Positions 372-50,448 of a stretch of 50,448 nt of DNA are shown here, one piece after another. How positions within the stretch are numbered: position 1 is the first letter of the stretch; every line of letters begins with the position of its first letter. Source of the DNA: Longimicrobiales bacterium (GTDB lineage Bacteria; Gemmatimonadota; Gemmatimonadetes; Longimicrobiales; Gaopeijiaceae); assembly GCA_046537985.1 (NCBI GenBank), contig JBKHJU010000001.1, positions 1-50,448 on the forward strand, in the 5' to 3' direction. The notes under the pieces were generated by a model. The model was not told the DNA's origin. It searched no databases and was given only the letters and a program-made list of their open reading frames with translations. Position numbers and translations under genes: made by a program.

Positions 372-563
372 CTACCGTTCCCACGCCTCGGGCTCCTCCT
401 CGTCCGGTATCGCGTCCTGGAGCAGGGCCAGGACCACCATCGTCCTCGCCTCCTCCCTCGCCTTCTCCTCCGGCACCCCCTCCCGCCGGAGGTCCTCGAC
501 CAGGGCCACGTAGCTCCGGGCGACCTCCCGGGACTGGCGGGCGAGGTCCGAGGCCAGGCTCAC
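372..563 (-). CDS. Hypothetical 63-aa acidic protein
   Basis: GTG start overlaps the portal stop (GTGA at 560..563). C-terminal part of listed ORF 372..989; the rest overlaps the portal gene. Confidence 0.4.
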   Translation of the reverse strand: MSLASDLARQSREVARSYVALVEDLRREGVPEEKAREEARTMVVLALLQDAIPDEEEPEAWER

Positions 564-1966
564 GCCCCGACCTCCTCTCGGTCCACTAGGTGTACCCGGT
601 CCGACTCGATGACCACGAGCTCCCTCGGGTCGCCGCCGATCGGCGTGAGCGACTTCGCCGTCTCCGCCCTGGTCTTGGAGAGCTCCGCCTCGTCCTTCTC
701 GTCGAGCTGGAACCGGTTGGGCCACTCGAACCGGTACCCGCCCCGAGGCTCCGGGAGGGCGCCAATCTGGATCCAGCGGTCCACGAGCGGGCGGAGAATC
801 ACCGGCTCGGCGTGGTTCGTCTCGCGCTCCTGAATCCGGCCGAGCCACTCCTTCTGGTCCTCGGTGGAGGCCCTCTCCCCCGTGGTGTTCCCGAAGAGGA
901 TCCGGAACGGCACCTCCGCCCCGGCCCCGATCAGCATCATGTATAGCTCCGCAGGGTCGGCGGGGTTGGGGGGCTCGGCGTCCAGCCACTGGCCCTCGAT
1001 CCCGGAGCCCACTATCTGCCGTCGGAGGTCGTGCATCATCTCCTCCGCCGCCTTCCCGAGGGCGTCCCGGTCGTCCTTCCCGATCTCCACGTTGGGGTCT
1101 ATGGACAGGAGCAGGATCTTGTCGGCGAGCTGCCAGTACGCCTCGGCGGTCGCCGCCGTGATCTTCTCCAGGTCCATCAGCCGGTTGAACACCCTCTTGA
1201 GCGCGGGCCTCCCGTGGACCTCGTCGGAGAGGCGGTCCTCGGCGATGTGCACCACCCGCGAGTGGTGGATCTCCTCCTCCACGTCCGGGAAGTTCTCGAC
1301 GCCCTCGGACAGCTTGATCCGGTAGACCAGCGGCTGGCCGAACCTCTCTTTACCGGTGTCCTGCTCCCACTCCGTGACCTTCACGTCCCCCTGGTGGAAG
1401 GACGAGAGGTAGAGCACGTCCTCCGGGCCGTTCACGGACTCCAGCGGGTCCTTAAGCGTCTGGTCCACGCCGGGCGTCCCCATGAAGAGCACGCCGTACT
1501 GACCGATCCTCGAGAGGCGGTCCGCCCGCTCCAGGTGGTTCCAGAGCCCGAGCCGGTCGGCCAGCTCCCGGAAGGCGCGGGTGAAGTCGGTCTCCTCCTC
1601 CGAGTCCTTCTCGTGGATCTCGGGCGGGTGCCGCCAGGTCGTCTTCGGGGCCATGTCCACGATCCGGCCCGCGATGTCCTGGCGCTGGTACCGACTCCAG
1701 TAGTGGTCGAAGTCCAGGTCGGATTCCTGGACGTATCCCGCCACCGTGTACACGTCCCGCTCGTTCCCGTACTGAAACCCCGCTTTCCTGGCGAACCGGA
1801 GCCGGTTCATGCGGTCCGACGACCCCGAGTGCTGGTGCGCCCGAGTGGCCCCACCGTTCACCGCGGCCACGGCGTTGTCCAGGCCGCGCACCCGGAGCCC
1901 CCCAGGGGTTTCGTACCAGCCGTTCCTCCGGTCCACGATGACCTGCGGTCCGCCGCTGCCAGGCAT
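560..1966 (-). CDS. Phage portal protein (DUF1073/HI1409-like)
   Basis: 468 aa of portal size and composition, placed in the head module. SD GGGGAGG sits 6 nt before the ATG. Confidence 0.65.
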   Translation of the reverse strand: MPGSGGPQVIVDRRNGWYETPGGLRVRGLDNAVAAVNGGATRAHQHSGSSDRMNRLRFARKAGFQYGNERDVYTVAGYVQESDLDFDHYWSRYQRQDIAGRIVDMAPKTTWRHPPEIHEKDSEEETDFTRAFRELADRLGLWNHLERADRLSRIGQYGVLFMGTPGVDQTLKDPLESVNGPEDVLYLSSFHQGDVKVTEWEQDTGKERFGQPLVYRIKLSEGVENFPDVEEEIHHSRVVHIAEDRLSDEVHGRPALKRVFNRLMDLEKITAATAEAYWQLADKILLLSIDPNVEIGKDDRDALGKAAEEMMHDLRRQIVGSGIEGQWLDAEPPNPADPAELYMMLIGAGAEVPFRILFGNTTGERASTEDQKEWLGRIQERETNHAEPVILRPLVDRWIQIGALPEPRGGYRFEWPNRFQLDEKDEAELSKTRAETAKSLTPIGGDPRELVVIESDRVHLVDREEVGA

Positions 1967-1978
1967 GTCGGGCCTCCC

Positions 1979-2374
1979 CTATGGGTCCAGCGCGTCTCTG
2001 ACGATCCAGTACAGCGCGTCCATGATCCTTCGGTTCTTCTCCGCCGCGATCCTCGATGCGCGGGCGACCATCTCCACGCCCCGCCGGTAGTCCTGCTCCC
2101 GGTTCCGGGCGGAGAACTCCCGGTCCATCCACAGCGCCGCCCTCATCGTCTCGTGCTCGGAGAACGGGAGCTCGCCTCCGAGCTCGGCCCGGAGGTCGTC
2201 CAGAAACTGCCGCCGGGCCCTCGCCCGCGTCCGGCCCCAGGCGGTCCGAAGCTCGGGCTCCTCGCCGACGTTGGCCGTCCCGGCGCAGTCCCGGCAGACC
2301 CTCCGGTACCTCGGCGTCGGGCGGCCGCAGACGCCACACGGTACGTCCACGGTAATCACGCCGCCGCTCGCCAC
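1979..2374 (-). CDS. Hypothetical zinc-ribbon protein
   Basis: 131 aa with two CxxC pairs (CGVCG...CRDC). Confidence 0.45.
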   Translation of the reverse strand: MASGGVITVDVPCGVCGRPTPRYRRVCRDCAGTANVGEEPELRTAWGRTRARARRQFLDDLRAELGGELPFSEHETMRAALWMDREFSARNREQDYRRGVEMVARASRIAAEKNRRIMDALYWIVRDALDP

Positions 2375-2377
2375 GGT

Positions 2378-2962
2378 TCAGCCCTCCTCTCTCATCGTGA
2401 GCCACTCCCGGTCGGGGTATCCCAGGAACTCGCGGGTCCTGCCGCTCATGGATCGTACCCAACCCTGGAGCCTGTCCTCGTTGCTGGTCCAGGCGGGCCA
2501 GTGGGCGTCGGCGTGAACCCAGGGTTTCCCGTCCCACACGTCGTGGTAGTGGGGGCGCCGGTCCATCGGGACGCCGCAGAGAACGGCGAGGGGACAGTTC
2601 AGGATGTCGGCGACGGCCACCGCGAGGAGGCCGGAGGAGCCCCCGGCCCAGACCTCGACCTGGCGGTCCGCCAGCGTCGGGACCTCCCGGCGGGCCCACG
2701 TCACGTAGCCGTCCGGGTGACCGCGCTCCCGCCGCCTCCGGATCCACTCGCCACCCTTCCCCGGCTTACACTCCCGGTGGAACTTCTCCGGGTGCATGGA
2801 GACCCAGTGGTCCAGGGGTCGGTCCCAGTCCACGCCGGCGTTGTTTACGGCGATGACGACCCCGGGCCAGACTCCGCCCACCATGCGCTCCAGCTCCGCA
2901 ACGTCGTCCCAGAGACACTCGGCACCGCCAAGGATCATGGCGGGGGGGACTTCCGGGCTCAC
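2378..2962 (-). CDS. Hypothetical protein (194 aa)
   Basis: Long ORF with coding-like composition. GGGAGG lies upstream of the GTG. Confidence 0.45.
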   Translation of the reverse strand: MSPEVPPAMILGGAECLWDDVAELERMVGGVWPGVVIAVNNAGVDWDRPLDHWVSMHPEKFHRECKPGKGGEWIRRRRERGHPDGYVTWARREVPTLADRQVEVWAGGSSGLLAVAVADILNCPLAVLCGVPMDRRPHYHDVWDGKPWVHADAHWPAWTSNEDRLQGWVRSMSGRTREFLGYPDREWLTMREEG

Positions 2963-3002
2963 ACTTCCCCGTCCTCCCTGTGGGTGGCTCAGACCTGTAA
3001 CG

Positions 3003-3701
3003 TCACCTCACCAGCCAAGCTAAGGCGTCCCGCGGCCGGAGGCGAGGGAAACAGTCCACAAAGCTCTCCGGGGAGCCGTTGGCCACCAGGACACCGCGCT
3101 CCTGGAGCTGGGGCAGGGCGCCCCGGAAGAGGTGGGGCAGGTGCCCGAGGTAGAAGTTGGGGCTTCCGTCCCATCGCTCGCGCCCGTGGCCGTCTATCCC
3201 GAGGAGGGTGACGCGCTCGGCACCGAGAAGGCAGGCGAGTTGAAGGGCGCCGAACCCCGAGTTTCCGGTGTGGATCGCGCGGGGGTCCTCACTCATCCCC
3301 CCCACGATCTGGGCCCACACCCGCTCCTCGAACGGGCCCTCGGTCGGCTCCTCCGCCACGACCCTACGAAGGTAGAGGACGTGTTCCGGGACCGGAGGTC
3401 TCTGCCACCGGTGACGGGCCTCGGGGGTCCCAAACTCGTCCGGGACCGCGGCCACGTATCGGACGCCGTCCACCGGGTCACGCATCAGGTCCAGGTTCTC
3501 CCGGGACGGATCCAGCGTGAACCAGTAGTCCGCCGCCGGGACGTGCTCCACGGCACCGTTGACGGCGATGACCGCCACTGGGTGGTCCCGTCGGACCCGA
3601 TCGACCAGGCCGACGTCCACGTTTGCCCAGGACGGACCCTGCCCACAGACCACCCACCACGGGCGGGTCTCCTCGATCTCCCGCAGGCTCCCGAACCTCA
3701 C
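3003..3701 (-). CDS. DUF115 / Maf-like (MptE-like) protein
   Basis: Motifs WWVVCGQGPS, AVNGA and HTGNSGFGALQLACLLGAERVTLLGIDG match the DUF115/MAF_flag10 family. GTG start overlaps the upstream stop (GTGA). Confidence 0.6.
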   Translation of the reverse strand: MRFGSLREIEETRPWWVVCGQGPSWANVDVGLVDRVRRDHPVAVIAVNGAVEHVPAADYWFTLDPSRENLDLMRDPVDGVRYVAAVPDEFGTPEARHRWQRPPVPEHVLYLRRVVAEEPTEGPFEERVWAQIVGGMSEDPRAIHTGNSGFGALQLACLLGAERVTLLGIDGHGRERWDGSPNFYLGHLPHLFRGALPQLQERGVLVANGSPESFVDCFPRLRPRDALAWLVR

Positions 3702-4906
3702 ACCCTCAGCCACAGCCTCACGTGCCTCCCGTTCGTGTCCACCGACACCAACTCGAACTCCTCAGCCACCCTCTCGGCCCACCAGGTCGCGGAACGCACC
3801 GTTAGGTGGAGCCTCTCGCCGATCTCGTCCCCCTTCTCGTCCACGAACGTCGCCACCTGAAACCACGCCCCCCTCCGGGTGTGGGCGGCGATCTGGCGGA
3901 TGGCCTCCCCCACCCGAGGCTCCGGGAGGTGCTCGAGGACGTCCACGCAGAAGGCGAAGTCCGTCTTCGGGAGGCTCGCGGGGGGGCTCCAAATGGTGCC
4001 CTGCCAGAAGTCCGGATCGTCCAGCGTCTCGGTGGTCGGAATCAGGTCCACCCCGACCACTCTGTTCATCCTCTTCCGTAGCCACCTCATGGCCCTGCCG
4101 TGACCGCAACCCCAGTCGGTCGCGGACGTGGCCCCGAGTCCATGCGCCCACCCCCAGGCGACCGGCACGGCGCCGGCTCCGACCGAGAACTCGGGACGGT
4201 ACACCCCCTCGGCGTACACCCGGGCGTACTTCTTTCTCTCGGAGCGGTAGTCCTCGTCGTCGGTCAGGCGGTGACGCGCCACGAGGTTCCGCCCGTCCGC
4301 CTTCCGCACGTAGGAGTATCCCAGGCCGTCCAGTATGCCACGGACCCGCTCCTCGGCGTCGGGGTTCAGGACCTCGGCCAGGACGAGCGGCCAGCTCCCT
4401 CGCACGGTCCCGAGCGCGCCCCGAAGGACCTCCTCCTCCATCCCCTCGACGTCCACCTTGATGGCGCATACCGTCTCGATTCGGCCCACCACCGAGTCCA
4501 GGGTGACCACCCGTACTCCGTCCCCCGGCCTCATCCGGGTCGCCGAGGTCAGGCTCTCCCCGTCGTGGGAGAGGCGCGCGGTGCCCTCCTCCGCCGACAC
4601 GGCGTGGGGGAAACACCTCACCCGGTCGGTCAGCCCGTTCAGCTCGAGGTTGGCCCGGAGTCGATACATCGCGGCGGGGTTGGGTTCGAAGGCGTAGCAC
4701 CTGGCCCCCGCCCTGGCGGCCAGGAGGGTGTAGAGGCCGGTGTACGCCCCCACGTCCAGGGCGAGCTCGCCGGGCCGCAGCGACGCGGTCCAGGCGTCCA
4801 CCGACTCCGGCTCAAACCTCTCGCCGTCCCACTTCCTCTCGGAGGCTCGCAGGACCTGGTCTCCCGGAACGTACAGCCGCACCCCCTCGATCTCCCGGGA
4901 GGTCAC
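3698..4906 (-). CDS. Fused dual methyltransferase: FkbM-family domain plus class I SAM methyltransferase domain
   Basis: LDVGAYTGLYT...AFEPNP...IKVDVEGME is an FkbM signature. The C-terminal half has DWGCGHGR...VDVLEHLPEP, a class I SAM fold. The listed ORF's N-terminal 133 aa is low-complexity; the real GTG start at 4906 overlaps the upstream stop. Confidence 0.65.
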   Translation of the reverse strand: MTSREIEGVRLYVPGDQVLRASERKWDGERFEPESVDAWTASLRPGELALDVGAYTGLYTLLAARAGARCYAFEPNPAAMYRLRANLELNGLTDRVRCFPHAVSAEEGTARLSHDGESLTSATRMRPGDGVRVVTLDSVVGRIETVCAIKVDVEGMEEEVLRGALGTVRGSWPLVLAEVLNPDAEERVRGILDGLGYSYVRKADGRNLVARHRLTDDEDYRSERKKYARVYAEGVYRPEFSVGAGAVPVAWGWAHGLGATSATDWGCGHGRAMRWLRKRMNRVVGVDLIPTTETLDDPDFWQGTIWSPPASLPKTDFAFCVDVLEHLPEPRVGEAIRQIAAHTRRGAWFQVATFVDEKGDEIGERLHLTVRSATWWAERVAEEFELVSVDTNGRHVRLWLRV

Positions 4907-5559
4907 GTGTCGCCGCCGTCCCCAGCCCGCGCCCCGATCGTGAAGCGGCTCGGGTCCACCACCCTCCGGACCTCCTCCCGGTCCCACTCCAGGCCGACGC
5001 GTCGGCAGACCTCCCGATAGTCCGCGTCGTCGCCGAGAAACAGGTCCACGGGCTCGATCCCGACGTGCCCGTGCCCCACCCCATCCTCGAGCTCCCGGGC
5101 CCGGGAGTGGTGCTCCTCGATCACCCGCTCCCCGTCGAAGCCCGGCGTCCCCCGGGCCAGGGGCCACCGCGAGAACGACTCCGTGATCTCCTCCACCGGT
5201 CGCCAGACCGTGACCCACGTGGCCTCTGGGAACGCCTCCGCCCAGGCCCGCCAGGCGAAGACGAGCTTTACGTCCTTGAACATCCACACCCCCTCGCCTC
5301 CCCACCCCTCGCGGCGGAGGATGTCCAGTACCCGCTCCCGGAGGTCCTCGGCGTTCCAGGACTCCAGGTCGGCGAAGCTCTGGACCGCGATCGGGTCCAT
5401 GCCCGCCCGCCGGAGTTGGGGCTTCAGGATCTCCTGCTTGAGGCGGACGTTCTCACAGAGCGAGTTGGTCCTCCCGGCCCACGCCCCGCAGGCGCGGAAG
5501 GCGTGGGCGGTCAGGCTGGTCCCCGAGCGGGGACAGCCGGCGATGAGCAGGGGCTTCAC
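4903..5559 (-). CDS. Sulfotransferase-family protein
   Basis: N-terminal PLLIAGCPRSGTSLT resembles the PAPS 5'-phosphosulfate-binding loop. GTG start overlaps the upstream stop (GTGA). Confidence 0.5.
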   Translation of the reverse strand: MKPLLIAGCPRSGTSLTAHAFRACGAWAGRTNSLCENVRLKQEILKPQLRRAGMDPIAVQSFADLESWNAEDLRERVLDILRREGWGGEGVWMFKDVKLVFAWRAWAEAFPEATWVTVWRPVEEITESFSRWPLARGTPGFDGERVIEEHHSRARELEDGVGHGHVGIEPVDLFLGDDADYREVCRRVGLEWDREEVRRVVDPSRFTIGARAGDGGDT

Positions 5560-5966
5560 GTTCTCTCCGGTTCGTCGGTCACGGTTCCGTCCGGCCACAG
5601 GTAGGCCGGACCGGGGTCGTCGATCGTCGTCACTTCGATGGGTCCGAGCGGCTTCCTGCCGGAGGAGTTCGAGACGACGATCTCCGGACCGAACTCTCCG
5701 ATGATTGAGACCCCGCCAGCGCCCCTCTTCGACCCCTGTCCCGGGGGTGGCGTCTTCGGGCGGGGGCTTCCACCCTCCCCGCGATACCCTCGCCGGCGCG
5801 ACGACAGGATGGTCTGCCCGATCCGTGCGAAGCCCTCGGCGGAACGCCGTAGGAGCCTACCCCAGGCGCCCGGATGGAGGAAGACGAGCCTGACGACTTC
5901 GGCCGCCCCCCCGCACCAGCCGTCACACCAGCCGTCGTACCAGTCGCCCTCCCTAGCCTTCGGCAT
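5556..5966 (-). CDS. Hypothetical protein with GW/C-rich N-terminus
   Basis: ORF with internal ATG at 5966; the middle is low-complexity. Confidence 0.3.
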   Translation of the reverse strand: MPKAREGDWYDGWCDGWCGGAAEVVRLVFLHPGAWGRLLRRSAEGFARIGQTILSSRRRGYRGEGGSPRPKTPPPGQGSKRGAGGVSIIGEFGPEIVVSNSSGRKPLGPIEVTTIDDPGPAYLWPDGTVTDEPERT

Positions 5967-6129
5967 CGTCGTCCTCCCAGGGGCGGGTGGCGTACATGGA
6001 GACCAGGGAGCCAAGAGCCACGAGTGTTATGACGGCCACGGCGGGGTAGGTCCCGAGGACGCCGGCCAGGACCGCACCGACGAACGCCGGGCCGCAGAGG
6101 ATCAGGACAAGCGGCGCGGGGTCACGCAT
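5953..6129 (-). CDS. Small two-helix membrane protein (58 aa)
   Basis: Two hydrophobic stretches (LVLILCGPAFVGAVLAGVL / VAVITLVALGSLV). ATG overlaps the upstream stop by 8 nt. Confidence 0.4.
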   Translation of the reverse strand: MRDPAPLVLILCGPAFVGAVLAGVLGTYPAVAVITLVALGSLVSMYATRPWEDDDAEG

Positions 6130-6502
6130 CGTCTCGCCCCCCTCGTCGGTAGGTCTCACCCACCATATCCAGGTCCCTCAGCGTCACCCACGCCGTCAGA
6201 CCCTCACCCCGGATCCGGTCCACCGTGCCCCGGGCGACCCTCACCCAGTCGTGCCAGGGGCGCCAGGGCCACGAGAGCAACCGCTCCCTCCAGGTCCTCC
6301 TCCGGGTGTAGACGATCTCCCGACCCTCGCCTGCCAGGAGTTCCACCAGGGCGGCGCAGTCCGGCTCGTCCAGGTGGAACCGGACGGAGCCCCGGATCCT
6401 CGTGAGACCCTCAAGCTCCAGGTCCTCCCGGGGAACGGTCCCGGGGATTCTGAGGTTGACCATCTCCGGGCCGTCGTCTCTTGGCTTCTCTCCGTCAGCC
6501 AT
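6122..6502 (-). CDS. Hypothetical acidic protein (126 aa)
   Basis: ATG preceded by GAGGGAGAGAGAG. Confidence 0.5.
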   Translation of the reverse strand: MADGEKPRDDGPEMVNLRIPGTVPREDLELEGLTRIRGSVRFHLDEPDCAALVELLAGEGREIVYTRRRTWRERLLSWPWRPWHDWVRVARGTVDRIRGEGLTAWVTLRDLDMVGETYRRGGRDDA

Positions 6503-7142
6503 CTCTCTCTCCCTCGAACGTTATGACGTGGTGTGAGTCTGACCCCTCCCGGGTCGCCCACGTGTACCTACGCCCCGTCCGGTCCAGCGCCTCCTGGAGG
6601 GCCTTGGTACAGCCGGGCAGGAACCGGTCGTGAGTCTCGATGAAGAGGAGAGCCACGGTCCGGAGCCACTCGGGGTCCGCCTCCAGGATCTCCCTCTCCA
6701 TCCCCTCTACGTCCATTTTCACGAGGTCGGGCGTCCACCCCTCCGGCAGGGCCTCGTCCAGGTTCATCGTCGGAACCGTGGCGATTCTGGCGCCGTCGTG
6801 ACCCTCGAGGGTGCTCGCCGCCCACTCCCCGCGGTCAGAGTCCCGGAGGACGATCTCTTTGCCACTCTCGGCCGCGAGGGCCCGGGTCCGGATCAGAGCC
6901 AGGGGCGCGTTCACCCCGGCCAGCTTGGCGTGTTCCGGGTGGGGCTCAAACCCGAGGACCTTGGCCTCCGGGTATCGGTCACACAACCACCGGGTTGAGA
7001 TCCCCGTGTAGGCTCCGGCGTCCACGATGAGCACCGGCGGGACCGGACACTCCACGTCGAACACCCTTCGAAGGTAGACCTCCCCGAATACCGTCACGTC
7101 CGTGGTCCCCGGGCGGACCATGACCGGCGCCACGGGACTCAC
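6495..7142 (-). CDS. FkbM-family methyltransferase
   Basis: VDAGAYTG...GFEPHP...VKMDVEGME. GTG start at 7142 overlaps the GT stop (GTGA). Confidence 0.65.
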   Translation of the reverse strand: MSPVAPVMVRPGTTDVTVFGEVYLRRVFDVECPVPPVLIVDAGAYTGISTRWLCDRYPEAKVLGFEPHPEHAKLAGVNAPLALIRTRALAAESGKEIVLRDSDRGEWAASTLEGHDGARIATVPTMNLDEALPEGWTPDLVKMDVEGMEREILEADPEWLRTVALLFIETHDRFLPGCTKALQEALDRTGRRYTWATREGSDSHHVITFEGERDG

Positions 7143-7804
7143 GTCTCGCCCCCGAACGACACCCTGGTCCACTCCTCGTGAGCCCACCCGGCCCGGGGGC
7201 TCGAGAACCGGGGGTGCCCGTGCCCCACCACGAGCCTGGATCCCGGCGGAGGGCCCTCCCGCGCCTCCTCCTTGAAACTGACGATCTGGCCCGGGTACAG
7301 GTCCATGAGCCGGTCCGCCCGCCCCTCCAGGAGCGAGTTCAGGTAGCGCCCGTCCCCCCGGAAGTCCCTCATGTGTCGCCGGGGCGCCTCACTCCAGGAG
7401 CTCCACACCTCCCGGGTGAGCGGTCCGGGACGAAACGCCATGACCCCGCTCTGGAGGATGTCGTGGTAGATCCCGGTCATCATCCCGAAGTCACCCGGGT
7501 AGTGTGCCAGGTCCTCAGGGCTTCCCACGACCAGGGTGTCCAGGTCCAGGTAGAGGACCAGCTCCCCGTCCGGAAAGAGGCCGGGCCCGAAGAGCTCCAT
7601 CTTGGACCACCACCCGGGCCAGGTGTAGCGGAGGGGAAACGCCCACTGGGGTGGAACGGAGTTCACGTCGGTGAGACAGGCGAACCGGTACGGCAGCGAG
7701 AGGTGGCGGGCCACGCCCCGCTTGAGGGCGTAGACCCACCGGGGATCATAGTCACCGCCGGAGCGGAGAACGCAAGCCACCGTGAGCCGCGCCTCGTTAC
7801 TCAC
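7139..7804 (-). CDS. Putative GT-A fold glycosyltransferase (DxD motif)
   Basis: N-terminal TVACVLRSGGDY and YLDLDTLVVG (DxD) resemble nucleotide-sugar transferases. GTGA overlap at 7801..7804. Confidence 0.45.
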   Translation of the reverse strand: MSNEARLTVACVLRSGGDYDPRWVYALKRGVARHLSLPYRFACLTDVNSVPPQWAFPLRYTWPGWWSKMELFGPGLFPDGELVLYLDLDTLVVGSPEDLAHYPGDFGMMTGIYHDILQSGVMAFRPGPLTREVWSSWSEAPRRHMRDFRGDGRYLNSLLEGRADRLMDLYPGQIVSFKEEAREGPPPGSRLVVGHGHPRFSSPRAGWAHEEWTRVSFGGET

Positions 7805-8037
7805 CTCCCCAGGCAGCAAAGCAGAGTCGCCACCGCCGCCAGCGCCTCAAGCCCCTCTTTGGCCTCCACCGGGTGTCCGTCCCACACGTGGGCCTCGGGG
7901 TCCCGCGGGTTCCTCCCGACGAACACCTCCCCGGTCTCGAGGTTGATGCCCAGGTAGGGACCGGCCTCGCCGTTGCGGTGGACCTCGACCGCCTCCCGTG
8001 TCGTCTCCGCGAACCTCGTCCCTCCACCTCTCTCCAT
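7801..8037 (-). CDS. Hypothetical 78-aa protein
   Basis: ORF that fills the gap and is coupled to the downstream gene. Confidence 0.35.
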   Translation of the reverse strand: MERGGGTRFAETTREAVEVHRNGEAGPYLGINLETGEVFVGRNPRDPEAHVWDGHPVEAKEGLEALAAVATLLCCLGR

Positions 8038-8049
8038 CGCCCTCTCCCT

Positions 8050-8421
8050 CTATGGCTTGGCGTCCTGACCGGTCTTGAGGAGCATGTCCCCCTCAAAGTA
8101 CGGGGTCCAGTCCACCGGGTTGTTGTACTTCCTCCAGATCTGATAGAAGTAGTAACCGGCGTCGAGGCCGTCCGTGTCGGTTCGCTCGATCGGGATCTCC
8201 GTCTCCCCGTTCGTCGGGTCGGAGTGGCTCCCGCTGGCCACGGTCACCTCCACCAGCGTCTCGGTGCCGCGGTCCTCTCCCACCCGGAGGACGATGTCGT
8301 CGTTGGAGATGTCAATGGTGTTCCCGTTCTCGTCCTTGAAGACGGCAGTCAGCTTATAGTCCGCCGCCAGGACGAGCTCTAGGTCTACGACGGTCGGGGT
8401 AACCTTCAGGGTCGTGGCCAT
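8050..8421 (-). CDS. Hypothetical beta-rich protein (123 aa); possible virion or decoration protein
   Basis: Strong SD: GGAGG, 5-nt spacer, ATG. Alternating polar/hydrophobic pattern. Confidence 0.45.
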   Translation of the reverse strand: MATTLKVTPTVVDLELVLAADYKLTAVFKDENGNTIDISNDDIVLRVGEDRGTETLVEVTVASGSHSDPTNGETEIPIERTDTDGLDAGYYFYQIWRKYNNPVDWTPYFEGDMLLKTGQDAKP

Positions 8422-8431
8422 GCGGACCTCC

Positions 8432-9871
8432 TCACTGTGCCGAGATGGTCAGATCGCCGTCCGGGGTCTGGCCCCCGAGCGATCCCGAGAGACTGGCGAC
8501 GGGAACCTCCACGAACGTCGTCGCCGCCGGGTCGTCGTACACGAGGTACGGTCCCTCGCCGGAGTCGCCCCCGATCCAGACCGGTCGGTTCGATCCGGCC
8601 CCCGCCCCCCCGTCCATTTCGACCTCCAGCGTCAACTCCGAGTCGGCCGAGATGGCCACGTCAAGGTTCATCTGCCCCGGCTCGATCTCGACTTGGGAGC
8701 CACCGTCGATGCGGTAGAAGATCTTCGTCCTGAGCGTGTCCTCGCTCGTCTCGACGCCCGGCGTTCGGTCGGTGTCTCCCCAGAACTCCCTCCCGAGGGC
8801 TCCGGGGACGCCGATCCCCTTGAGCGTGACGCCCTGCGGGAACGACCCCGCGGCGAACGTCTTGGTCCAAGTGGCCTTCTGCGCCCCGGCGTTGATTCTG
8901 ACCCAGAGGGTCCCGCTGCGGTTGTCGAGCGGGACGAGGACGTACGGATCCCTGGCTCCGATCGCACCCCGGTCGATCTCGGAGGTCGCCCTCTCCGATT
9001 CGTGCATGTCGGTATCGCGCACGCCCATCACCGCCATGGTCTCCACCAGGGCGCCGTCCGCCACCCCGAGCAGTCTCATGTGCCCCGGGACGCCCGAGAG
9101 GTGGATCAGGTGGTCATCGTCCCATCTCGCGATACCGGAGACGATGCGATCGGAGCGGTGGTCCAAGTTCTCCGCAACCGGAAATTCGGACACCGGGGTC
9201 AGGTAGTTCGCCAGGATCGTTGAGGATGACGCCTCGTCCGAGATGAGGACGGTCGCACCGGTGCCAGACTGGACCACGATACCGTGGCTGGTCGCAACCG
9301 GCTTGTTCCGGTCGTTTAAGGCGACCGGCGACGTCACCGTTCTGACGAGGCTCCCGTCGGCGGGGTCGTAGACGAATATCTCGGAACCGTTTGCGTTTTC
9401 CGTGATGTAGACCAGACCGTTGTGCGGACCGAACTCGACTCGGATCGGGCGAAACGGAAGCGCCCACGTCCTCACGATCCCGCCGCCCGGATCGTCCAGG
9501 TCCCAGACCGCCACCTGGTTCGGATCGTCCGAAATGGCGTATATCTCGCGGGCCGACTCGTCCACCACCACCCCGAATATCCCTTTGAGGTCAACGGACT
9601 GCTGAAAGCTCAGGTCCTCGTCGTAGAAGTAGACCTTTTCGGCTCTCCGGTTCGAGAGAAGCACCTTCCCGGAGTCATAGAAAGCCCACTGAGGCCAGCC
9701 ATCGGGTGGCCAGAGTGTCGGGTCGTCAAACGCCGTTTGGCCCCACGTCCCGAAAAAGTGCGGCTCCTCGGTGGAGATCCTCCGGGGCAGCCCGTCCCCG
9801 GCGGAGACGATCTCCGCCCCTCCCGAGAGGGTGGCGTCGTCGAGCTCGAGCTCCTCGATCTGAACCGTCAT
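8432..9871 (-). CDS. Hypothetical 479-aa beta-propeller-like protein
   Basis: Long ORF with repetitive beta-strand motifs (VYD..G..V, IFVYDPADGSLV). Confidence 0.5.
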   Translation of the reverse strand: MTVQIEELELDDATLSGGAEIVSAGDGLPRRISTEEPHFFGTWGQTAFDDPTLWPPDGWPQWAFYDSGKVLLSNRRAEKVYFYDEDLSFQQSVDLKGIFGVVVDESAREIYAISDDPNQVAVWDLDDPGGGIVRTWALPFRPIRVEFGPHNGLVYITENANGSEIFVYDPADGSLVRTVTSPVALNDRNKPVATSHGIVVQSGTGATVLISDEASSSTILANYLTPVSEFPVAENLDHRSDRIVSGIARWDDDHLIHLSGVPGHMRLLGVADGALVETMAVMGVRDTDMHESERATSEIDRGAIGARDPYVLVPLDNRSGTLWVRINAGAQKATWTKTFAAGSFPQGVTLKGIGVPGALGREFWGDTDRTPGVETSEDTLRTKIFYRIDGGSQVEIEPGQMNLDVAISADSELTLEVEMDGGAGAGSNRPVWIGGDSGEGPYLVYDDPAATTFVEVPVASLSGSLGGQTPDGDLTISAQ

Positions 9872-9872
9872 C

Positions 9873-10175
9873 TCAGACGATCTCCCCGGAGGCGATGCCC
9901 TGCTCCCGGAGCCACCCGTAGAGGCTCTTCTTGACCCCGCTGTAGAGATCGGGGTCCTCGGCGACCAGTGCCCAGAAGTCCTCGGCCGGGATCTCGACGA
10001 TGCGGGAGCGCACCCAGACCGGCTTTCCGTCGTCGTCCTCGTACCCCCAGAGCACGTCCAGGCTGGCGGTCGTCGGCCCCTTCCTCTCGGCCAGCCCCCG
10101 GAACTCCACCCGGTCGATCGTGGTCAGCGTCAGCGGAGGATCCTGCTCGGGTTCGTCCAGTCTAACCGGCGTCAT
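9873..10175 (-). CDS. Hypothetical 100-aa protein
   Basis: Coding-like ORF; a 1-nt gap separates it from the downstream start. Confidence 0.45.
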   Translation of the reverse strand: MTPVRLDEPEQDPPLTLTTIDRVEFRGLAERKGPTTASLDVLWGYEDDDGKPVWVRSRIVEIPAEDFWALVAEDPDLYSGVKKSLYGWLREQGIASGEIV

Positions 10176-10557
10176 CGTTCCTCCCAGAAAGGTGTCGTTG
10201 GTTGGGTAGCGTGCCGGGTCGGGGCGTCTCTATAGACTTGAGGGTCTCCCTCCACCACCGGTCGCGCTCCCCCTGAGATATTGGTGAGGGTGGCGGTGGC
10301 GGGTAGGTACCCGGCCTCCAGACCCCGATCTCAGCCACACCGTCCAGGATCAGCACGCGGCAGTCGGGGAACGCCTGGGCCACGCTCCGGATGGTCTCGT
10401 TGTATTCCACGTCCGAGATGGTATGTTCGGGGGACAGCCGAACCACGATCGTGTCCCCCTCCTCGGGCCGGTATCTCCGAACCTCCTCCACCGCCTCCGG
10501 CAGCACCGGAACGCCCAACAGCCCGGCCAGCGACTTGAAAAACCCTCGCCGCAACAT
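10162..10557 (-). CDS. Protein with twin-arginine (Tat) signal peptide
   Basis: MLRRGFFKSLAGLLGVPVLPEA matches RRxFxK plus a hydrophobic region. SD GAGGAGG sits 5 nt before the start. Confidence 0.5.
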   Translation of the reverse strand: MLRRGFFKSLAGLLGVPVLPEAVEEVRRYRPEEGDTIVVRLSPEHTISDVEYNETIRSVAQAFPDCRVLILDGVAEIGVWRPGTYPPPPPSPISQGERDRWWRETLKSIETPRPGTLPNQRHLSGRNDDAG

Positions 10558-10756
10558 CTCTACCTCCTCACTCAGTTAGCTGGGGGGAAAAGTTTCCGCC
10601 CCCCGAACCTGCCCACCTCATCGCGGGTGGCGCCACGTACCTCCAAGTATTTTCCCCGGGGCGGCGAGCTCCGCCCGGATCCGGAAGTAGACCGCCAGGG
10701 CGCGGCGCCGCCGGCGCCCCGCCCACCGTCGAAGGTGTCTCATCTCTCCCCCCTCT

Positions 10757-12244
10757 CTACCTGAACCAGAACTCGCGGCCCTCCTCCCTCACCGTCAGGC
10801 GGTTGAAGGCGCCCACCGCCGCGTCCGCCGCGTCTATCAGTTTGGCCCCCGGCTCGAACCGCTGCAACTGCCGGAGCAGGCTCTCGTTCCAGGGACCCCG
10901 AACGAGCTTGACGTTTCCGGCCTCCGCCTGGGCGCTCATCGGTTTGGCTCTCGCCACCTTGTCGCCGGTCACCTTGTCCCGGTGAACGTCGTACCCGGCG
11001 AGGCGAGCCACCGCCGCCAGGGCCACGTCCTTTCCGGAGGAGCCGGGCTCCTGCTCGAGCCAGATGGCGACCCCGTTACCGTCCTCTTCCGCCACCTGGT
11101 CCTGAACGTCCTCCCGCTCCTTGGCGCTCCAGAACCCCTCGGTCACGTCCTCGATGTAGTAGGTGTCCCCAGCCTTCGACATCTTCACCCCGGCGGACCG
11201 TGCGGAGGCGCCCTCCTCCTTCGTGGTGGAGGCGGAGTCCCAGTACCGCACCCGCTCCGCCTCGGCCGGGGAAGCGTCCACGATCTCGAACCAACTCCGG
11301 TCGAACACCATCCCGGAGGTTTCCCGGACCATCCAGTTCCCGCCCCGGAGTCGGTCCCGGTCCACCTTGGGCAGCGCCTCGAGGATCGACAGGTACGTGG
11401 GGTCCTCCCTCATCAGGGTGGGGTTGTCCTCGAGCTTGGCTCGGATGAACGTGACCGACCGCGGGTGGATCCTCGGGTCCATGTCCCGGTCGTCCCGGAA
11501 GGCCACCGCCTCCTCCTCCGAGTCGAACCAATGGAGGTCGCCCTCGAAGCGGAGGAACCACCGGAGGACGCCGTCCCGCTCCTCGATCGGGAACCCGTCC
11601 TCGCCGATCCACCAGGAGAGGAGCTCGTGGAGCCACCCCCCGGTCTCGTCCTCCGGCGGGACCGGGTTGCAGGTCGCCCGGACGTAGGGCCTCACCCCAC
11701 AGGTCGAGCGGTTGCGGCTGGTGAGGTACCAGAACTGGCGCTCGGTGAACTCCTCCGCCTGATCCCACGCGATGAGCGGTATCTGTGAGGACTTCCACTC
11801 CAGCCGGTCCTTCTCGTGCTGGAGGTGGTGGAACGCCACCTTGGCGCCGGAGGGAAAACGCCACTCGTGGGAGGGGTTCTGGTAGGGCTCCGCCCCGAGC
11901 TCCGGGTATATCTTGTAGCTCGTGTCCCAGAGCCCGCCCTCCTGGGTGATGCGGGGCGACGTCCTCCGGAAGATCACCGCGTGGAAGTCGGGCACGTCGG
12001 TGTGGCGGCACGCCTCCATGAGGAGCCCGTAGGTCTTTCCGCCACCGGCCTCCCCGCCGTAGAAGACGATGTCCGCCCGGGTCTGGAGGAACCTCGCCTG
12101 CGGCCCGTCGTGGGGGCGGAGCGGCGGCTCCCCGAACTCGACCGAGTGGTCCTCCCCGGAGCGGACCAGGCCCTCGTAGAACATCGCGGCGAGCTGGTCC
12201 CGGACCGTGCCGCCCGCCCTCTTGCCCCTCAGCGGCGCGGCCAA
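10757..12244 (-). CDS. terL: Terminase large subunit
   Basis: Walker A GGEAGGGKTYGL, followed by a C-terminal nuclease-like domain. 495 aa. Confidence 0.85.
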   Translation of the reverse strand: MAAPLRGKRAGGTVRDQLAAMFYEGLVRSGEDHSVEFGEPPLRPHDGPQARFLQTRADIVFYGGEAGGGKTYGLLMEACRHTDVPDFHAVIFRRTSPRITQEGGLWDTSYKIYPELGAEPYQNPSHEWRFPSGAKVAFHHLQHEKDRLEWKSSQIPLIAWDQAEEFTERQFWYLTSRNRSTCGVRPYVRATCNPVPPEDETGGWLHELLSWWIGEDGFPIEERDGVLRWFLRFEGDLHWFDSEEEAVAFRDDRDMDPRIHPRSVTFIRAKLEDNPTLMREDPTYLSILEALPKVDRDRLRGGNWMVRETSGMVFDRSWFEIVDASPAEAERVRYWDSASTTKEEGASARSAGVKMSKAGDTYYIEDVTEGFWSAKEREDVQDQVAEEDGNGVAIWLEQEPGSSGKDVALAAVARLAGYDVHRDKVTGDKVARAKPMSAQAEAGNVKLVRGPWNESLLRQLQRFEPGAKLIDAADAAVGAFNRLTVREEGREFWFR

Positions 12245-12245
12245 G

Positions 12246-13034
12246 TCAGGCCCCCCTCCCGTTCGAGCTCTCCGGCGGGCGCCCGAGCCTCTCCATCATC
12301 CTCTTCCCGAGCTCGCGGCGGGCGTCCGGATCGTCCACCACGTCCCGGATGTCCTCGAGGACCTGAGAGAACAGCGCGATGACGACCCGCCGGTGCATGT
12401 ACTCCGCCTCCACCTGGTCCCGCCGCGTCTGAGAGTCGAACAGCTTGCGGACGTGGTCCTGCTGGCGCCGGACCTCGTCGAAGACCTCCCACCGCTCCGC
12501 CCCCCGGTCCACCGCCTCCTCGAGCCGGCGGAACCCCTCGCGCATCGCGCCGACGTTCTCCCGCCGGATGGCCTCCCGGATCTCCCGGACCGTGCCCCGG
12601 AGCTCCTCCCACGTGTCCGGTCCGCCACCGCCGTCCATCCTCCGGAGCAGGTCCGCCGTTATCGTCGTCGCCACCCGCATGTGCTCCAGGAGGGACATGA
12701 GCTCCGAGGAGTCCATCTCCTCGTAGACCCGGAGCAGGTCCCCCGGGAGGTACCGGGAGAAGCCCTTGCCCTCGTAGGCGGGATGAAGGGGCCCCCAGGC
12801 CGCGTTCGCGCCGTGGTGCTTGCAGCGCCCGTTCCGACCGTAGGGGTGTTGGGTGCACGGACGGGGCGCGGGTCCGACCTTCTCCGAGTCGCTCCGGGCG
12901 CGGCCCCCACATATCGGGTGACCGACGACCTCTTCCTCCACGTGGGCGCACCAGTCCGCCCAGGAGTCGTGCCCGACCTCCCGGGCCCGCTCGTCGTGGG
13001 CGTCCGACCATCCGTCCCTCGGAGCTACCGCCAT
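12246..13034 (-). CDS. Candidate terminase small subunit; Cys/His-rich
   Basis: Lies immediately upstream of terL with a 1-nt gap. 262 aa with CxxC...C...H metal-binding residues. Assigned by position only. Confidence 0.35.
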   Translation of the reverse strand: MAVAPRDGWSDAHDERAREVGHDSWADWCAHVEEEVVGHPICGGRARSDSEKVGPAPRPCTQHPYGRNGRCKHHGANAAWGPLHPAYEGKGFSRYLPGDLLRVYEEMDSSELMSLLEHMRVATTITADLLRRMDGGGGPDTWEELRGTVREIREAIRRENVGAMREGFRRLEEAVDRGAERWEVFDEVRRQQDHVRKLFDSQTRRDQVEAEYMHRRVVIALFSQVLEDIRDVVDDPDARRELGKRMMERLGRPPESSNGRGA

Positions 13035-15146: not shown

Positions 15147-16418
15147 TCACGTGACGGCCTTCACCAGCCACACCCGCTCCTCGCCCTCCACCAGGGACCT
15201 CTTGTAACCCTCTCTCTCGTACCACTCCTCGAGCCACGTGTCCGGACGGCAGGCCAACTCCACCATCTCCGAGCCGGCCGCCTCCTCCGCCGCCCGCAGC
15301 AGGCGCCGCCCATGACCGCGGCGCCGGTACTCGGGCCTCACGAAGAGATTGCAGACGGTGGGGTCCCCGGCCGAGGAGGACGGCCACTCCAACTCCACGC
15401 ACCCGACCGCCTCACCCCGCTCGGTGAGGAGAAAACGGGAGACCGCCAGCCCCTCCACGAGAGTGTCCAGGCGGATCAGGACCAGGTCGTCGGTCTCCGG
15501 CTCCTCTCCGTCCGACCGGTTCCGTGTCGTCCGCTCCTCCCGCCATGTCTCGTCGTCAAAGGGGCCGGCGCCGCACCCCGAGCAGGTGTCCTCTCCCTCC
15601 AGCGCGGCGGTCTGGCAGAGGGGACACCTCTTGAGCTCGGCTCCGACCCCCTGCCATCGACACTCCCGAAGGACGGGAAGAATCTGACGGGCGTAGACTT
15701 CCTCAACCCGGGCCCGCGCCCGCTGCAGTTCCGACCACGGAAGCCCCTGGCGCTCCGCCTCGGCAAAGTTCCGGAACGCCTCGGCCGCAGATCGCGCCGC
15801 CCTCCCACGCATCACCGACCGCTCCAGGTCGGTCAGGTCCCAGGCGTACAGCACCGCGTGGAGGTCGCCCCCTCCGATCCTCTTGAGGAGCAGCGGATCG
15901 GTGGGCGGGTCCGCCTCGATCCGGGTCGGGGACCACTCCTCCACCTCCCACAGAATGAAGTGATCCCGGAGGTAGCTCGCGCCACCGATCTTCCGGAGGC
16001 CCCCGGGGGGAACCATCGGGACCAGGGCGTACCAGCGCTCCATCTGACGGTAGTCCGACCACTCCTCCGTGGGGGGAGCCCCTCCCACGTCCACCCGAAC
16101 CTCCAGGGTGTCGGAGCGAACCGTGGCGCGCGGGCTCCGGGCGTCGAACTCCACGAACGTCCGCCCCCTGCGAAGGTTCAACTGGACCTGCTCACGGTCG
16201 GCCCTGGCCACCGCCAGGCGGGGGCGTCCACGGCGGTCGGCCCCGGCGGTCCTCATGGCGTCCCGGAGGCTGAGAAGCGACTCGCCGCTCGCCATCCTCT
16301 CGAGCCCGGCAAGGACCGCCTCGTACTCCTCGTCCGCCCGGCGCCGCAGCGCCCGGCGGTACTCCTCGGCCCTGGCCGCGGCCTCCGCCCGGTCCATCTC
16401 CATCGTCGGCACGTCCAT
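15147..16418 (-). CDS. Multi-domain protein with zinc ribbon and C-terminal GNAT acetyltransferase
   Basis: C-terminus VGCVELEW...VCNLFVRPEYRRRGHGRRLLRAAEEAA is a GNAT motif A. CPLCQ...CSGCG is a zinc ribbon. ATG at 16418 preceded by GAGAGGAGGGAG. Confidence 0.5.
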   Translation of the reverse strand: MDVPTMEMDRAEAAARAEEYRRALRRRADEEYEAVLAGLERMASGESLLSLRDAMRTAGADRRGRPRLAVARADREQVQLNLRRGRTFVEFDARSPRATVRSDTLEVRVDVGGAPPTEEWSDYRQMERWYALVPMVPPGGLRKIGGASYLRDHFILWEVEEWSPTRIEADPPTDPLLLKRIGGGDLHAVLYAWDLTDLERSVMRGRAARSAAEAFRNFAEAERQGLPWSELQRARARVEEVYARQILPVLRECRWQGVGAELKRCPLCQTAALEGEDTCSGCGAGPFDDETWREERTTRNRSDGEEPETDDLVLIRLDTLVEGLAVSRFLLTERGEAVGCVELEWPSSSAGDPTVCNLFVRPEYRRRGHGRRLLRAAEEAAGSEMVELACRPDTWLEEWYEREGYKRSLVEGEERVWLVKAVT

Positions 16419-16440
16419 CGGTCTCCCTCCTCTCAGGGGC

Positions 16441-16513
16441 CTGTGACACACACGAGACACACACGTCTAATATACTGGGGCCCCCGCGAGCGCAAACCCC
16501 GGACTGGGAAGCA
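16441..16513 (-). promoter_or_regulatory. Candidate promoter/leader region with TATATT -10-like hexamer and (GT/CA) alternating repeats
   Basis: Low-GC 53-bp gap. The minus strand reads ...TTTGCGCTCGCGGGGGCCCCAGTATATTAGACGTGTGTGTCTCGTGTGTGTCACAG.. before the RBS of gene 15147..16418. Confidence 0.3.
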
Positions 16514-17002
16514 TCAGGACTCGGGGGCGTCCCGCAGCGGGTGGGAGTCGGGCGTGTCCTCGTCGAGACCCTCCCACCGGATGCGGGTCTGCAGCGGGTG
16601 CTTGTCGACCCTGGGACGCGACGGCGTGTCCCAGCTGCGGGCCCGGACGGTGTGGACCCGCCGGTACCCGGCTCCCCTGAGGCTGGCCCCGCCCTCCTCC
16701 TCCAGGGTGTACGTCACCAGCCGGCGGTAGCCGAGCTCCCTGGCGGCCCTCCGGCAGGCGCCGAGCAGGAACGAGGGGGCGTTTCGGGTCCCGTCCGTGC
16801 ACAGCCGCGTCACCTCCGCGGTCCACCCGTCGTCGAGCACCCTGGAGACCGGCCGGCCGACGATCGCCACGCCGACGACCTCCCCGTCCTCGGCGGCCGC
16901 CATCGCCCAGAGCCCGCCGACCGGAGCGGGGGCGTGCCGGTGGTGACGGTCCACGAACACCCGGGCGTCAGACACCGAGCAGGGCACGACCTCGAGACTC
17001 AC
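16514..17002 (-). CDS. GNAT-family acetyltransferase (163 aa)
   Basis: AIVGRPVSR...RLCT...GACRRAARELGYRRLVTYT is a GNAT fold. GTG start overlaps the MTase stop (GTGA). The long listed ORF 16514..17767 is a frame artefact. Confidence 0.5.
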   Translation of the reverse strand: MSLEVVPCSVSDARVFVDRHHRHAPAPVGGLWAMAAAEDGEVVGVAIVGRPVSRVLDDGWTAEVTRLCTDGTRNAPSFLLGACRRAARELGYRRLVTYTLEEEGGASLRGAGYRRVHTVRARSWDTPSRPRVDKHPLQTRIRWEGLDEDTPDSHPLRDAPES

Positions 17003-50429: not shown

Positions 50430-50448
50430 GGCGGGGACGGCTCCGGTC

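Follow-up and report, generated by a model that had tools for sequence, protein, structure and literature searches.

An enzyme cassette between the terminase and portal genes

The window analysed here is the whole of contig JBKHJU010000001.1, a 50,448-bp sequence binned into an NCBI metagenome-assembled genome labelled Longimicrobiales and belonging to an uncultured phage. Its genes for the large terminase subunit (terL) and the portal protein are separated by an 8.79-kb interval that contains 15 open reading frames (ORFs) and one 41-codon gene remnant and lies inside the late structural operon (Table 1). The interval encodes a predicted GT8-family glycosyltransferase (GT), an FkbM-family methyltransferase, a fusion of a second FkbM domain to a class-I methyltransferase, a sulfotransferase (ST) and two DUF115 paralogs. 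Comparison with other phages indicates that the locus is a methyl- and sulfotransferase-extended variant of a widespread, mobile phage late-operon cassette.

A preliminary description of this DNA had placed an enzyme block between terL and the portal gene, and profile matches now fix both borders. The size that it gave, 8.7 kb, does not suit its boundaries of 3003-10557, which span 7.55 kb and leave out both the second DUF115 paralog and the zinc-ribbon gene that precedes the portal gene. The reported co-orientation and translational coupling within the late structural operon are borne out: all genes of the interval lie on the minus strand, and GTGA start/stop overlaps occur at five junctions (7801-7804, 7139-7142, 5556-5559, 4903-4906 and 3698-3701). 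The only spacer longer than 40 nt is one of 199 nt after terL, and the interval contains no terminator-like sites beyond shuffled expectation. Two parts of the earlier picture have to be revised. The junction is not 'lambda-like' at the family level, since terL is of the Terminase_6 type and the head module of the MuF type. Nor is the block a single island; it combines a mobile enzyme cassette with unrelated lineage-specific cargo that is absent from a close relative, L001. The enzyme inventory itself (a GT-A glycosyltransferase, two FkbM proteins of which one is fused, a sulfotransferase and a DUF115/Maf-like protein) survives profile and structure tests, with profile matches for all four of the methyltransferase, sulfotransferase, glycosyltransferase and DUF115 classes. 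Our literature search likewise found no description of a combined glycosyl, methyl and sulfo set in a phage structural operon. The original observation was therefore largely right, and its interpretation is plausible but unproven.

Table 1. Features of the terL-portal interval and other structural genes of the window. Values after family names are E-values; percentages are identities; GC3, third-position GC content.
Feature	Positions	Strand	Evidence and remarks
GT8-family retaining GT-A glycosyltransferase, P1 PmgQ-like, 221 aa	7139..7804	-	phrog_1962 4.4e-36
FkbM-family S-adenosylmethionine (SAM) methyltransferase	6495..7142	-	PF05050 2e-11; TIGR01444 2.3e-16; phrog_8156 3.5e-14
PAPS-type sulfotransferase (Sulfotransfer_3-like), 218 aa	4903..5559	-	PF13469 4.8e-05, 24.2 bits
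FkbM (~42-205) + class-I SAM methyltransferase (~253-385) fusion, 402 aa	3698..4906	-	PF05050 1.4e-12; PF13489 1.1e-13; TIGR01444 5.9e-27
DUF115/MptE-like protein, Maf/GT42 sialyltransferase-type fold, P1 PmgP-like	3003..3701	-	phrog_2111 8e-32; phrog_4603 'alpha-2,3-sialyltransferase'
Second, divergent DUF115 paralog	2378..2962	-	HMMs: PmgO-like group 8.6e-10, PmgP-like group 1.2e-08
Large terminase subunit terL	10757..12244	-	Pfam Terminase_6N 2.2e-14, Terminase_6C 5.4e-06; phrog_979 1.8e-132; upstream border
Portal	560..1966	-	Phage_portal_3 PF06381 1.2e-37; phrog_146 1.5e-64; downstream border
41-codon gene remnant	10618..10743	-	local alignment LRRW...VYFRIRAELA to L001 3136-3474, residues 4-28
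131-aa protein, RRGFFK motif	10162..10557	-	56% to L001 5891-6235; adjoins glycosyltransferase in L001
100-aa lineage-specific ORF	9873..10175	-	GC3 frame support; no family match; absent from L001
479-aa cargo protein, outside enzyme cassette	8432..9871	-	no family match; absent from L001
123-aa beta-rich cargo protein	8050..8421	-	phrog_1084 6.6e-11; phrog_20633 'tail protein' 1.5e-4 (weak); absent from L001
78-aa ORF	7801..8037	-	no family match; stop overlaps glycosyltransferase start (GTGA); absent from L001
126-aa lineage-specific ORF	6122..6502	-	GC3; no family match; slot of 195-aa GT-like gene in L001, L076, L078
68-aa membrane protein, two hydrophobic segments	5953..6159	-	maximum 19-residue Kyte-Doolittle 2.54; 79% to L001 8477-8653
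136-aa lineage-specific ORF	5556..5966	-	no family match; absent from L001
131-aa zinc-ribbon protein, just upstream of portal	1979..2374	-	70% to L001 11862-12251; CxxC...CxxC; weak DZR_2 0.035
Head decoration protein	48348-48782		phrog_766
Major capsid protein	47287-48348		follows decoration protein
Likely tape-measure protein	41152-43650		size and position
1183-aa tail protein	37120-40671		after tape-measure candidate

The glycosyltransferase and the DUF115 pair

The 221-residue glycosyltransferase is a predicted retaining-type GT8 enzyme with a metal motif. A profile built from 35 sequences matches GT8 structures in the PDB (6mw5, E = 4.7e-07; 5gvv, E = 4.4e-04), and the DxD motif, D87-L88-D89, is invariant among these sequences. 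The predicted fold is GT-A Rossmann-like, with GT8 members as its nearest neighbours. Single-sequence PDB searches with this protein and with the sulfotransferase returned no match, so that profiles were required for both. The enzyme also lacks any Pfam match, including Glyco_transf_8, at E up to 5, and it is shorter than the characterized GT8 enzymes in CAZy (Skp1 alpha-galactosyltransferase, GlyE, glycogenin, LgtC).

The DUF115 protein next to the methyltransferase fusion (3003-3701) is predicted to adopt the fold of the Maf central domain, which is GT42-like. It too has no Pfam match at E up to 5, although PF01973 is precomputed on many of its 69 homologs, and neither paralog nor the glycosyltransferase matched anything in Pfam or NCBIfam at permissive thresholds. 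The DUF115 fold is common to glycosyltransferases and pyrophosphokinases. Its best-known relatives are the Maf glycosyltransferases that attach nonulosonic acids to flagellin (DUF115/PF01973; Magnetospirillum Maf, PDB 5mu5); these share the central fold with the phage protein and differ in having flanking domains. The neighbours of the window DUF115 genes are phage head genes, and no flagellin or nonulosonic-acid synthesis genes were found between terL and the portal gene or among the other window ORFs scanned. Together, the solved structures nearest to the core enzymes are those of protein-glycosylation enzymes: Maf, GlyE, Skp1 GalT, glycogenin and PBCV-1 A64R.

The second DUF115 paralog (2378-2962) falls in the same single-linkage family. 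BLAST scores to the two window paralogs failed to split this family, and its subfamilies were defined by spectral clustering and hidden Markov models (HMMs). Two subfamilies result, and 58 loci carry one member of each. The GxGPS loop and conserved Asp residues that are kept in the first paralog and in PmgO and PmgP of phage P1 are gone from the second, which may therefore be a non-catalytic partner subunit. In the unrelated phage L078, both paralogs are fused into one 423-residue ORF (11190-12461), suggesting that the DUF115 proteins act as a pair and would form a heterodimer elsewhere.

Methyltransferases and sulfotransferase

Both FkbM proteins score above the family cut-offs: 60.5 bits for the single-domain enzyme (6495-7142) and 94.9 bits for the fusion (3698-4906) with TIGR01444 (cut-off 37.7), and 44.8 and 48.5 bits, respectively, with PF05050 (cut-off 22.7). 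FkbM is a family that commonly O-methylates sugars. In the fusion, TIGR01444 aligns at residues 50-179 and the class-I families Methyltransf_23/11/25 at residues 264-381; it also matches phrog_8156 (2e-29) and phrog_24759 (3e-10). Its real start, at 4906, is set by a switch in the GC3 frame plot near position 4900. A 535-aa ORF spanning this switch (3698-5305) was rejected in favour of the 218-aa sulfotransferase gene, read in a different frame, followed by the 402-aa fusion gene.

The protein encoded at 4903-5559 is a predicted sulfotransferase with intact motifs for 3'-phosphoadenosine-5'-phosphosulfate (PAPS). Its match to PF13469 is below the Pfam gathering cut-off (24.2 versus 27 bits), and this domain is precomputed on 14 of the 22 other sulfotransferase homologs listed. 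In the N-terminal 5'-phosphosulfate loop (PRSGTS), 22 sequences agree without exception at G8 and R11-S12-G13-T14-S15 and almost without exception at P10, and the loop aligns with 'GGVPRSGTTL' of TPST. The 3'-phosphate pair, R120/S128, is also invariant and aligns with the R...S segment of TPST1 and Stf1. The spacing of the two elements fits the 5'-phosphosulfate and 3'-phosphate sites for PAPS. Profile matches to solved structures are weak (Stf1 2zq5, E = 0.002; TPST1/2, E ~0.03). The PAPS motifs are thus held in common with the Sulfotransfer_3 family (mycobacterial Stf1, TPST1/2), from which the window protein differs in its sub-cut-off score; its substrate may be a sugar or a tyrosine.

Among 50,697 GenBank phage records, tblastn found no match for the sulfotransferase and four only for the FkbM enzyme.

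Distribution of the core cassette

A profile of the DUF115 protein recovered 73 loci from IMG/VR, which together with L001 make 74. The core of the cassette is widespread rather than peculiar to the window. Two DUF115 paralogs are present in 62 of the 74 loci and a GT8 gene in 68, with an FkbM methyltransferase also in 31; the cassette genes are usually contiguous. Recognised head or connector genes adjoin the cassette in 46 of the 73 loci, on both sides in 20 of these; a typical site has the major head protein on one side and the head-tail adaptor/Hc1 on the other. A scan of genome contigs with one stringent pattern, which is not a census, gave five loci, all proteobacterial.

In GenBank phages, the core genes match pmgO, pmgP and pmgQ of P1, P7 and SJ46, the Citrobacter phage phiNP, and Xanthomonas and Stenotrophomonas jumbo phages; Caulobacter jumbo phages match the DUF115 protein alone. 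Just downstream of the jumbo-phage cassette, six loci (L025, L043, L045, L046, L054 and L059) encode between one and three large proteins that are paralogs of each other. Several of them, like two opposite-strand members located upstream (L043 and L046), terminate in long (Thr-Pro-Thr-Val)n tracts, which resemble mucin-type linkers and could be O-glycosylation acceptors.

The comparison identifies P1 pmgO/pmgP/pmgQ as the counterpart of the cassette core. PmgP is 33% identical to the first DUF115 protein (compared as ORF 3003-3713), PmgQ is 28-31% identical to the GT8 enzyme, and PmgO is a member of the sister DUF115 subfamily. The P1 genes, arranged pmgO-pmgP-(ppp)-pmgQ, are adjacent and co-oriented and follow a late promoter, with homologs in P7, SJ46 and phiNP. 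P1 differs from the window in lacking FkbM methyltransferases and a sulfotransferase, in the insertion of a phosphatase gene, and in that its cassette is not located between terL and a portal gene. The P1 cassette lies behind the late promoter LPpmgL and C1 operators, and is hence repressed in lysogeny. The pmg genes are annotated solely with 'putative morphogenetic function', and our literature search found no paper on the function of pmgO/pmgP/pmgQ or on phage DUF115 proteins. In phiNP (L084), the DUF115 and GT8 core occupies 6140-7651, between Rz and terS (the small terminase subunit gene), and so belongs to the late operon that the antitermination Q genes precede. Given the late or repressor-controlled position of the cassette in these two phages, we judged a role in lysogeny unlikely. 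phiNP is a cultured lambdoid prophage of Citrobacter rodentium and offers a handy experimental system besides P1.

The sulfotransferase-bearing form is mobile

The gene order GT8 - FkbM - GT-like - ST - ST - DUF115 - DUF115 recurs at 45-58% identity on three backbones with unrelated terminases: those of the window lineage, of L076 and of L078. The L076 cassette lies between a lambda-type GpA terminase and Phage_portal_2. In L078, which has a P22-like terS backbone, it lies between MuF and a Gp13-like capsid gene, so that the sulfotransferase-bearing form is inside a head-gene block in each case. The FkbM enzyme (6495-7142) is 82% identical to that of L001 and 49-52% to those of L076 and L078, and the second DUF115 paralog is 76% and 40-43% identical, respectively. 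Because the terminases of these backbones are unrelated, the set must move horizontally as a unit, and the preserved gene order argues for selection on the set. We conclude from these comparisons that the cassette core is horizontally mobile.

Closer to the window, L001 also has ~9 kb between terL and the portal gene. The two phages share the 131-aa RRGFFK gene, the GT8 and FkbM genes, the 68-aa membrane protein gene, the sulfotransferase, both DUF115 genes and the zinc-ribbon gene. L001 lacks the 100-, 479-, 123-, 78-, 126- and 136-aa genes and the methyltransferase fusion, and has instead a 195-aa GT-like gene (7893-8480), a second sulfotransferase (9421-10008) and seven other small genes. 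Two of these differences are substitutions within a slot: the 126-aa ORF of the window stands where L001 has the GT-like gene, and the fusion stands where L001 has its second sulfotransferase, a slot that is also filled by a sulfotransferase in L076 and L078. The remnant after terL, which corresponds to a 112-aa gene at the same place in L001, points to a further gene replacement just downstream of terL. A G6...C6 hairpin is located near this point, just upstream of the 131-aa gene (10582-10604).

Apart from such swaps, the cassette proteins of the window and L001 are 76-82% identical, compared with 89-93% for terS, terL, the decoration protein and the capsid protein (terL 89%, capsid 93%) and 83% for the portal. 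By this measure, turnover is quicker in the cassette than in the structural genes that flank it. That close relatives swap tailoring enzymes slot by slot suggests that their product is under diversifying selection, as would be expected of a surface structure with a part in adsorption, immunity or the evasion of defences.

The same swapping could also be read as the mark of a recombination hot spot that gathers unrelated morons, whose enzymes act on different substrates and form no single pathway; a protein-tyrosine sulfotransferase beside methyltransferases that act on proteins or small molecules would be an example. Besides the several slots that differ from L001, the truncated remnant after terL, the partial sets in L085 and L086 and the matches of the sulfotransferase profile to protein-tyrosine sulfotransferases (E ~0.03) are in keeping with such an assembly. 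We nevertheless regard it as improbable, because a hot spot of this kind does not account for the seven-gene order kept at 45-58% identity on three unrelated backbones, or for the co-occurrence of the DUF115 pair and the GT8 gene in 62-68 of the 74 loci.

A proposed role in virion glycosylation

Virion glycosylation has been shown so far mainly in actinobacteriophages, where it blunts antibody recognition, a property relevant to phage therapy. The reading that we favour, with a confidence that stops a little short of an even chance, is that the cassette directs late, cytoplasmic glycosylation of a virion protein with a methylated and sulfated glycan. The cassette genes would be co-transcribed and translationally coupled with the head genes, and their soluble products would act in the cytoplasm during virion assembly, a location that agrees with the lack of hydrophobic segments in the enzymes. 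The DUF115 pair and the GT8 enzyme would assemble a short glycan, O-linked to a virion protein exposed at the surface, from host nucleotide sugars, such as a CMP-activated ulosonic acid (for example Kdo) and a UDP-hexose. This glycan would probably be carried by the major capsid protein, by the decoration protein or by a tail protein. Methyl groups from SAM would then be added by the FkbM and class-I methyltransferases, and sulfate from PAPS by the sulfotransferase, yielding a variable, charged coat on the virion surface. The analysis shows which genes are present, the folds and catalytic motifs of their products, the position in the operon, and that the cassette recurs and is mobile; in the scheme built on this we infer the donors and the reaction order and, most of all, the acceptor. 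CMP-Kdo as the donor for the DUF115 pair is a speculation, made because P1 grows in E. coli K-12, which to our knowledge makes no nonulosonic acids.

A virion acceptor is favoured by the recurrent position of the cassette in head operons, by its lytic-only expression in P1 and phiNP, and by the protein-glycosylation enzymes found among the nearest solved structures. It is also favoured by the faster turnover of the cassette relative to the flanking structural genes and by a precedent in Cluster O mycobacteriophages. Reports on Cluster O describe an O-methyltransferase and three glycosyltransferases encoded between the genes for portal and protease and modifying the capsid and tail tube (PMC4351075, PMC11600133). 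The arrangement in Corndog (gp35 O-methyltransferase, gp36-38 glycosyltransferases) resembles that of the window in that glycosyltransferase and O-methyltransferase genes lie in the structural operon beside the portal gene (Freeman et al. 2023, as cited in PMC11600133). According to that report, the Cluster O enzymes are not themselves virion components but modify both the capsid and the tail tube (PMC11600133). Cluster O differs in having neither DUF115/Maf-like genes nor a sulfotransferase, in its portal-protease site and in its actinobacterial host. No mycobacteriophage matches to the GT8, DUF115, FkbM or sulfotransferase proteins were found in the 50,697 phage records (FkbM and sulfotransferase by tblastn), and the sequences thus indicate that the relation is one of analogy, not homology.

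Several observations weigh against this putative virion acceptor. The Maf N- and C-terminal domains, which are thought to engage flagellin, are missing from the phage DUF115 proteins, and neither the cassette nor the window ORFs that were scanned showed any gene for the synthesis of nucleotide sugars. In the window lineage, the cassette includes a conserved membrane protein with two hydrophobic segments (5953-6159). The sulfotransferase-bearing contigs L085 and L086 have incomplete or rearranged cassettes. Of the 73 loci, 14 are in jumbo phages with the cassette beside ribonucleotide reductase genes, not head genes, and a further 13 have no recognised neighbour. Finally, P1 pmgO, pmgP and pmgQ are dispensable for plaque formation, being nonessential in a CRISPR interference screen (PMC10695390).

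Alternatively, the cassette could remodel the host envelope. Working at the inner membrane, on its cytoplasmic side, the enzymes would modify lipid-linked lipopolysaccharide (LPS) core, O-antigen, capsule, or S-layer or flagellin glycans and so alter the surface of the host in the course of lytic growth, for example to stop progeny or competing phages from adsorbing to infected cells and debris. The only membrane protein of the interval is conserved inside the cassette in the window and L001, and the neighbouring 131-aa protein carries a twin-arginine motif. The enzyme families are compatible with such a role: GT8 includes LPS-core enzymes, FkbM methyltransferases and sulfotransferases are generally known to tailor glycans that are secreted or displayed at the surface (examples are NoeI/NoeE for the rhizobial Nod factor, and O-antigen end caps), and the PHROG category of phrog_1962 is 'moron, auxiliary metabolic gene and host takeover'. 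The membrane protein is, however, absent from the L076 and L078 cassettes, and no flippase, GT-C or polymerase gene is present. The phage genes known to cause seroconversion are active during lysogeny, and membrane glycosyltransferases or flippases are among them, whereas the cassette lies in late operons and is C1-repressed in P1; late expression would probably leave little time to replace surface glycans before lysis. Envelope remodelling is therefore rather unlikely in our judgement.

The ribonucleotide reductase genes beside the 14 jumbo-phage cassettes would fit a different target, the phage DNA, whose bases the glycosyltransferase, methyltransferases and sulfotransferase could decorate as protection against restriction. 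Phage GT-A enzymes with structural kinship to WaaJ/WaaO and PBCV-1 A64R attach sugars to 5-hydroxymethylcytosine in DNA (bioRxiv 10.1101/2023.12.21.572611). The DUF115 fold is, moreover, also found in pyrophosphokinases, and pyrophosphorylation is generally known as an activation step in thymidine hypermodification. DNA modification clusters nevertheless occur alongside genes for replication or nucleotides, in the company of ThyS or 5mYOX (bioRxiv 10.1101/2023.12.21.572611), while this cassette is in a head operon. Among the window ORFs scanned there is no thymidylate-synthase-like protein, 5mYOX/TET enzyme or C5-methyltransferase, the only methylase seen being an N6/N4 enzyme, and P1 DNA is not generally known to be glycosylated. 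We consider DNA hypermodification very improbable.

A broader form of the virion-glycosylation proposal is that a mobile 'virion glycocalyx' cassette, hitherto unnoticed, is common to tailed phages of Gram-negative and related bacteria, in which the Maf-like pair and GT8 enzyme would build a capsid or tail O-glycan and swappable methyl- and sulfotransferases would diversify it. We advance this generalization tentatively, as somewhat unlikely. If true, it would bring to light the first phage virion glycan that carries sulfate, and the P1 genes pmgO, pmgP and pmgQ, without an assigned function for two decades, would gain one. Should the cassette glycosylate virions, the phenomenon would extend to many phage lineages of Proteobacteria and Gemmatimonadota, relying on different enzymes, namely the Maf-like pair and GT8, and on sulfation and methylation as a new chemistry. 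Because the core cassette is present in P1 and phiNP, the hypothesis is directly testable in standard laboratory systems.

Other genes of the interval

The 479-aa, 123-aa and small genes appear from their distribution to be lineage-specific cargo unrelated to the enzyme cassette. Permissive Pfam and NCBIfam searches found nothing for the 131-aa RRGFFK protein or for the 100-, 479-, 123-, 126- and 136-aa proteins. The 479-aa protein, described earlier as beta-propeller-like, has as its sole support for that fold a weak olfactomedin match (E = 0.043), and the assignment is not confirmed. PHROG scans of ten of its homologs gave nothing informative. The 51 family representatives match it at residues ~1-70 and ~320-470 only, the middle being hypervariable; this architecture of conserved ends and a variable middle is reminiscent of virion-attached binding proteins. 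One homolog, L087 8001-9392, lies between a 549-aa portal-like gene and MuF. For the 123-aa protein, the earlier label 'strongly expressed' comes down to the consensus Shine-Dalgarno sequence GAGGAGG upstream of its ATG.

The 131-aa protein at 10162-10557, which has no Pfam, PHROG or NCBIfam match, had been called a Tat-signal protein. It begins MLRRGFFK, with L-R-R-G-F-F-K at residues 2-8, and the RRGFFK motif is kept in its sole homolog, in L001, so that the protein is a candidate for such a signal as far as the twin-arginine motif goes. The remainder of the signal is less well matched: the uncharged stretch is 12 residues long in the window and 11 in L001, followed by Glu, and neither sequence has an AxA site. 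TATFIND reportedly expects an uncharged h-region of about 13 or more residues.

Contig structure and gene content

The contig represents a phage genome that is circularly permuted and nearly complete. At the left contig end a MuF-like gene is cut within its N-terminal part (2-289), and at the right end (48786-50447) the homolog of a 657-aa head-region protein is likewise interrupted; gauged against L001, ~1.4 kb appears to be missing. The genes for the decoration protein, capsid protein, tape-measure candidate and 1183-aa tail protein come next, in this order, after that of the head-region protein. The GC content is ~70%, and because such GC-rich DNA gives many ORFs, six-frame ORFs were filtered by a GC3 frame plot. 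Frame-supported genes at 1-13 kb are all on the minus strand, and plus-strand ORFs of this region, such as 3132-3860 and 1031-3211, were dismissed as mere shadows of the GC-rich coding sequence. A 437-aa protein with a C-terminal GNAT acetyltransferase domain (15147-16460) and the N6/N4 DNA methyltransferase (16999-18165) are encoded upstream of the packaging genes. A long low-complexity tract rich in glycine occupies the central to C-terminal part of the 1183-aa tail protein.

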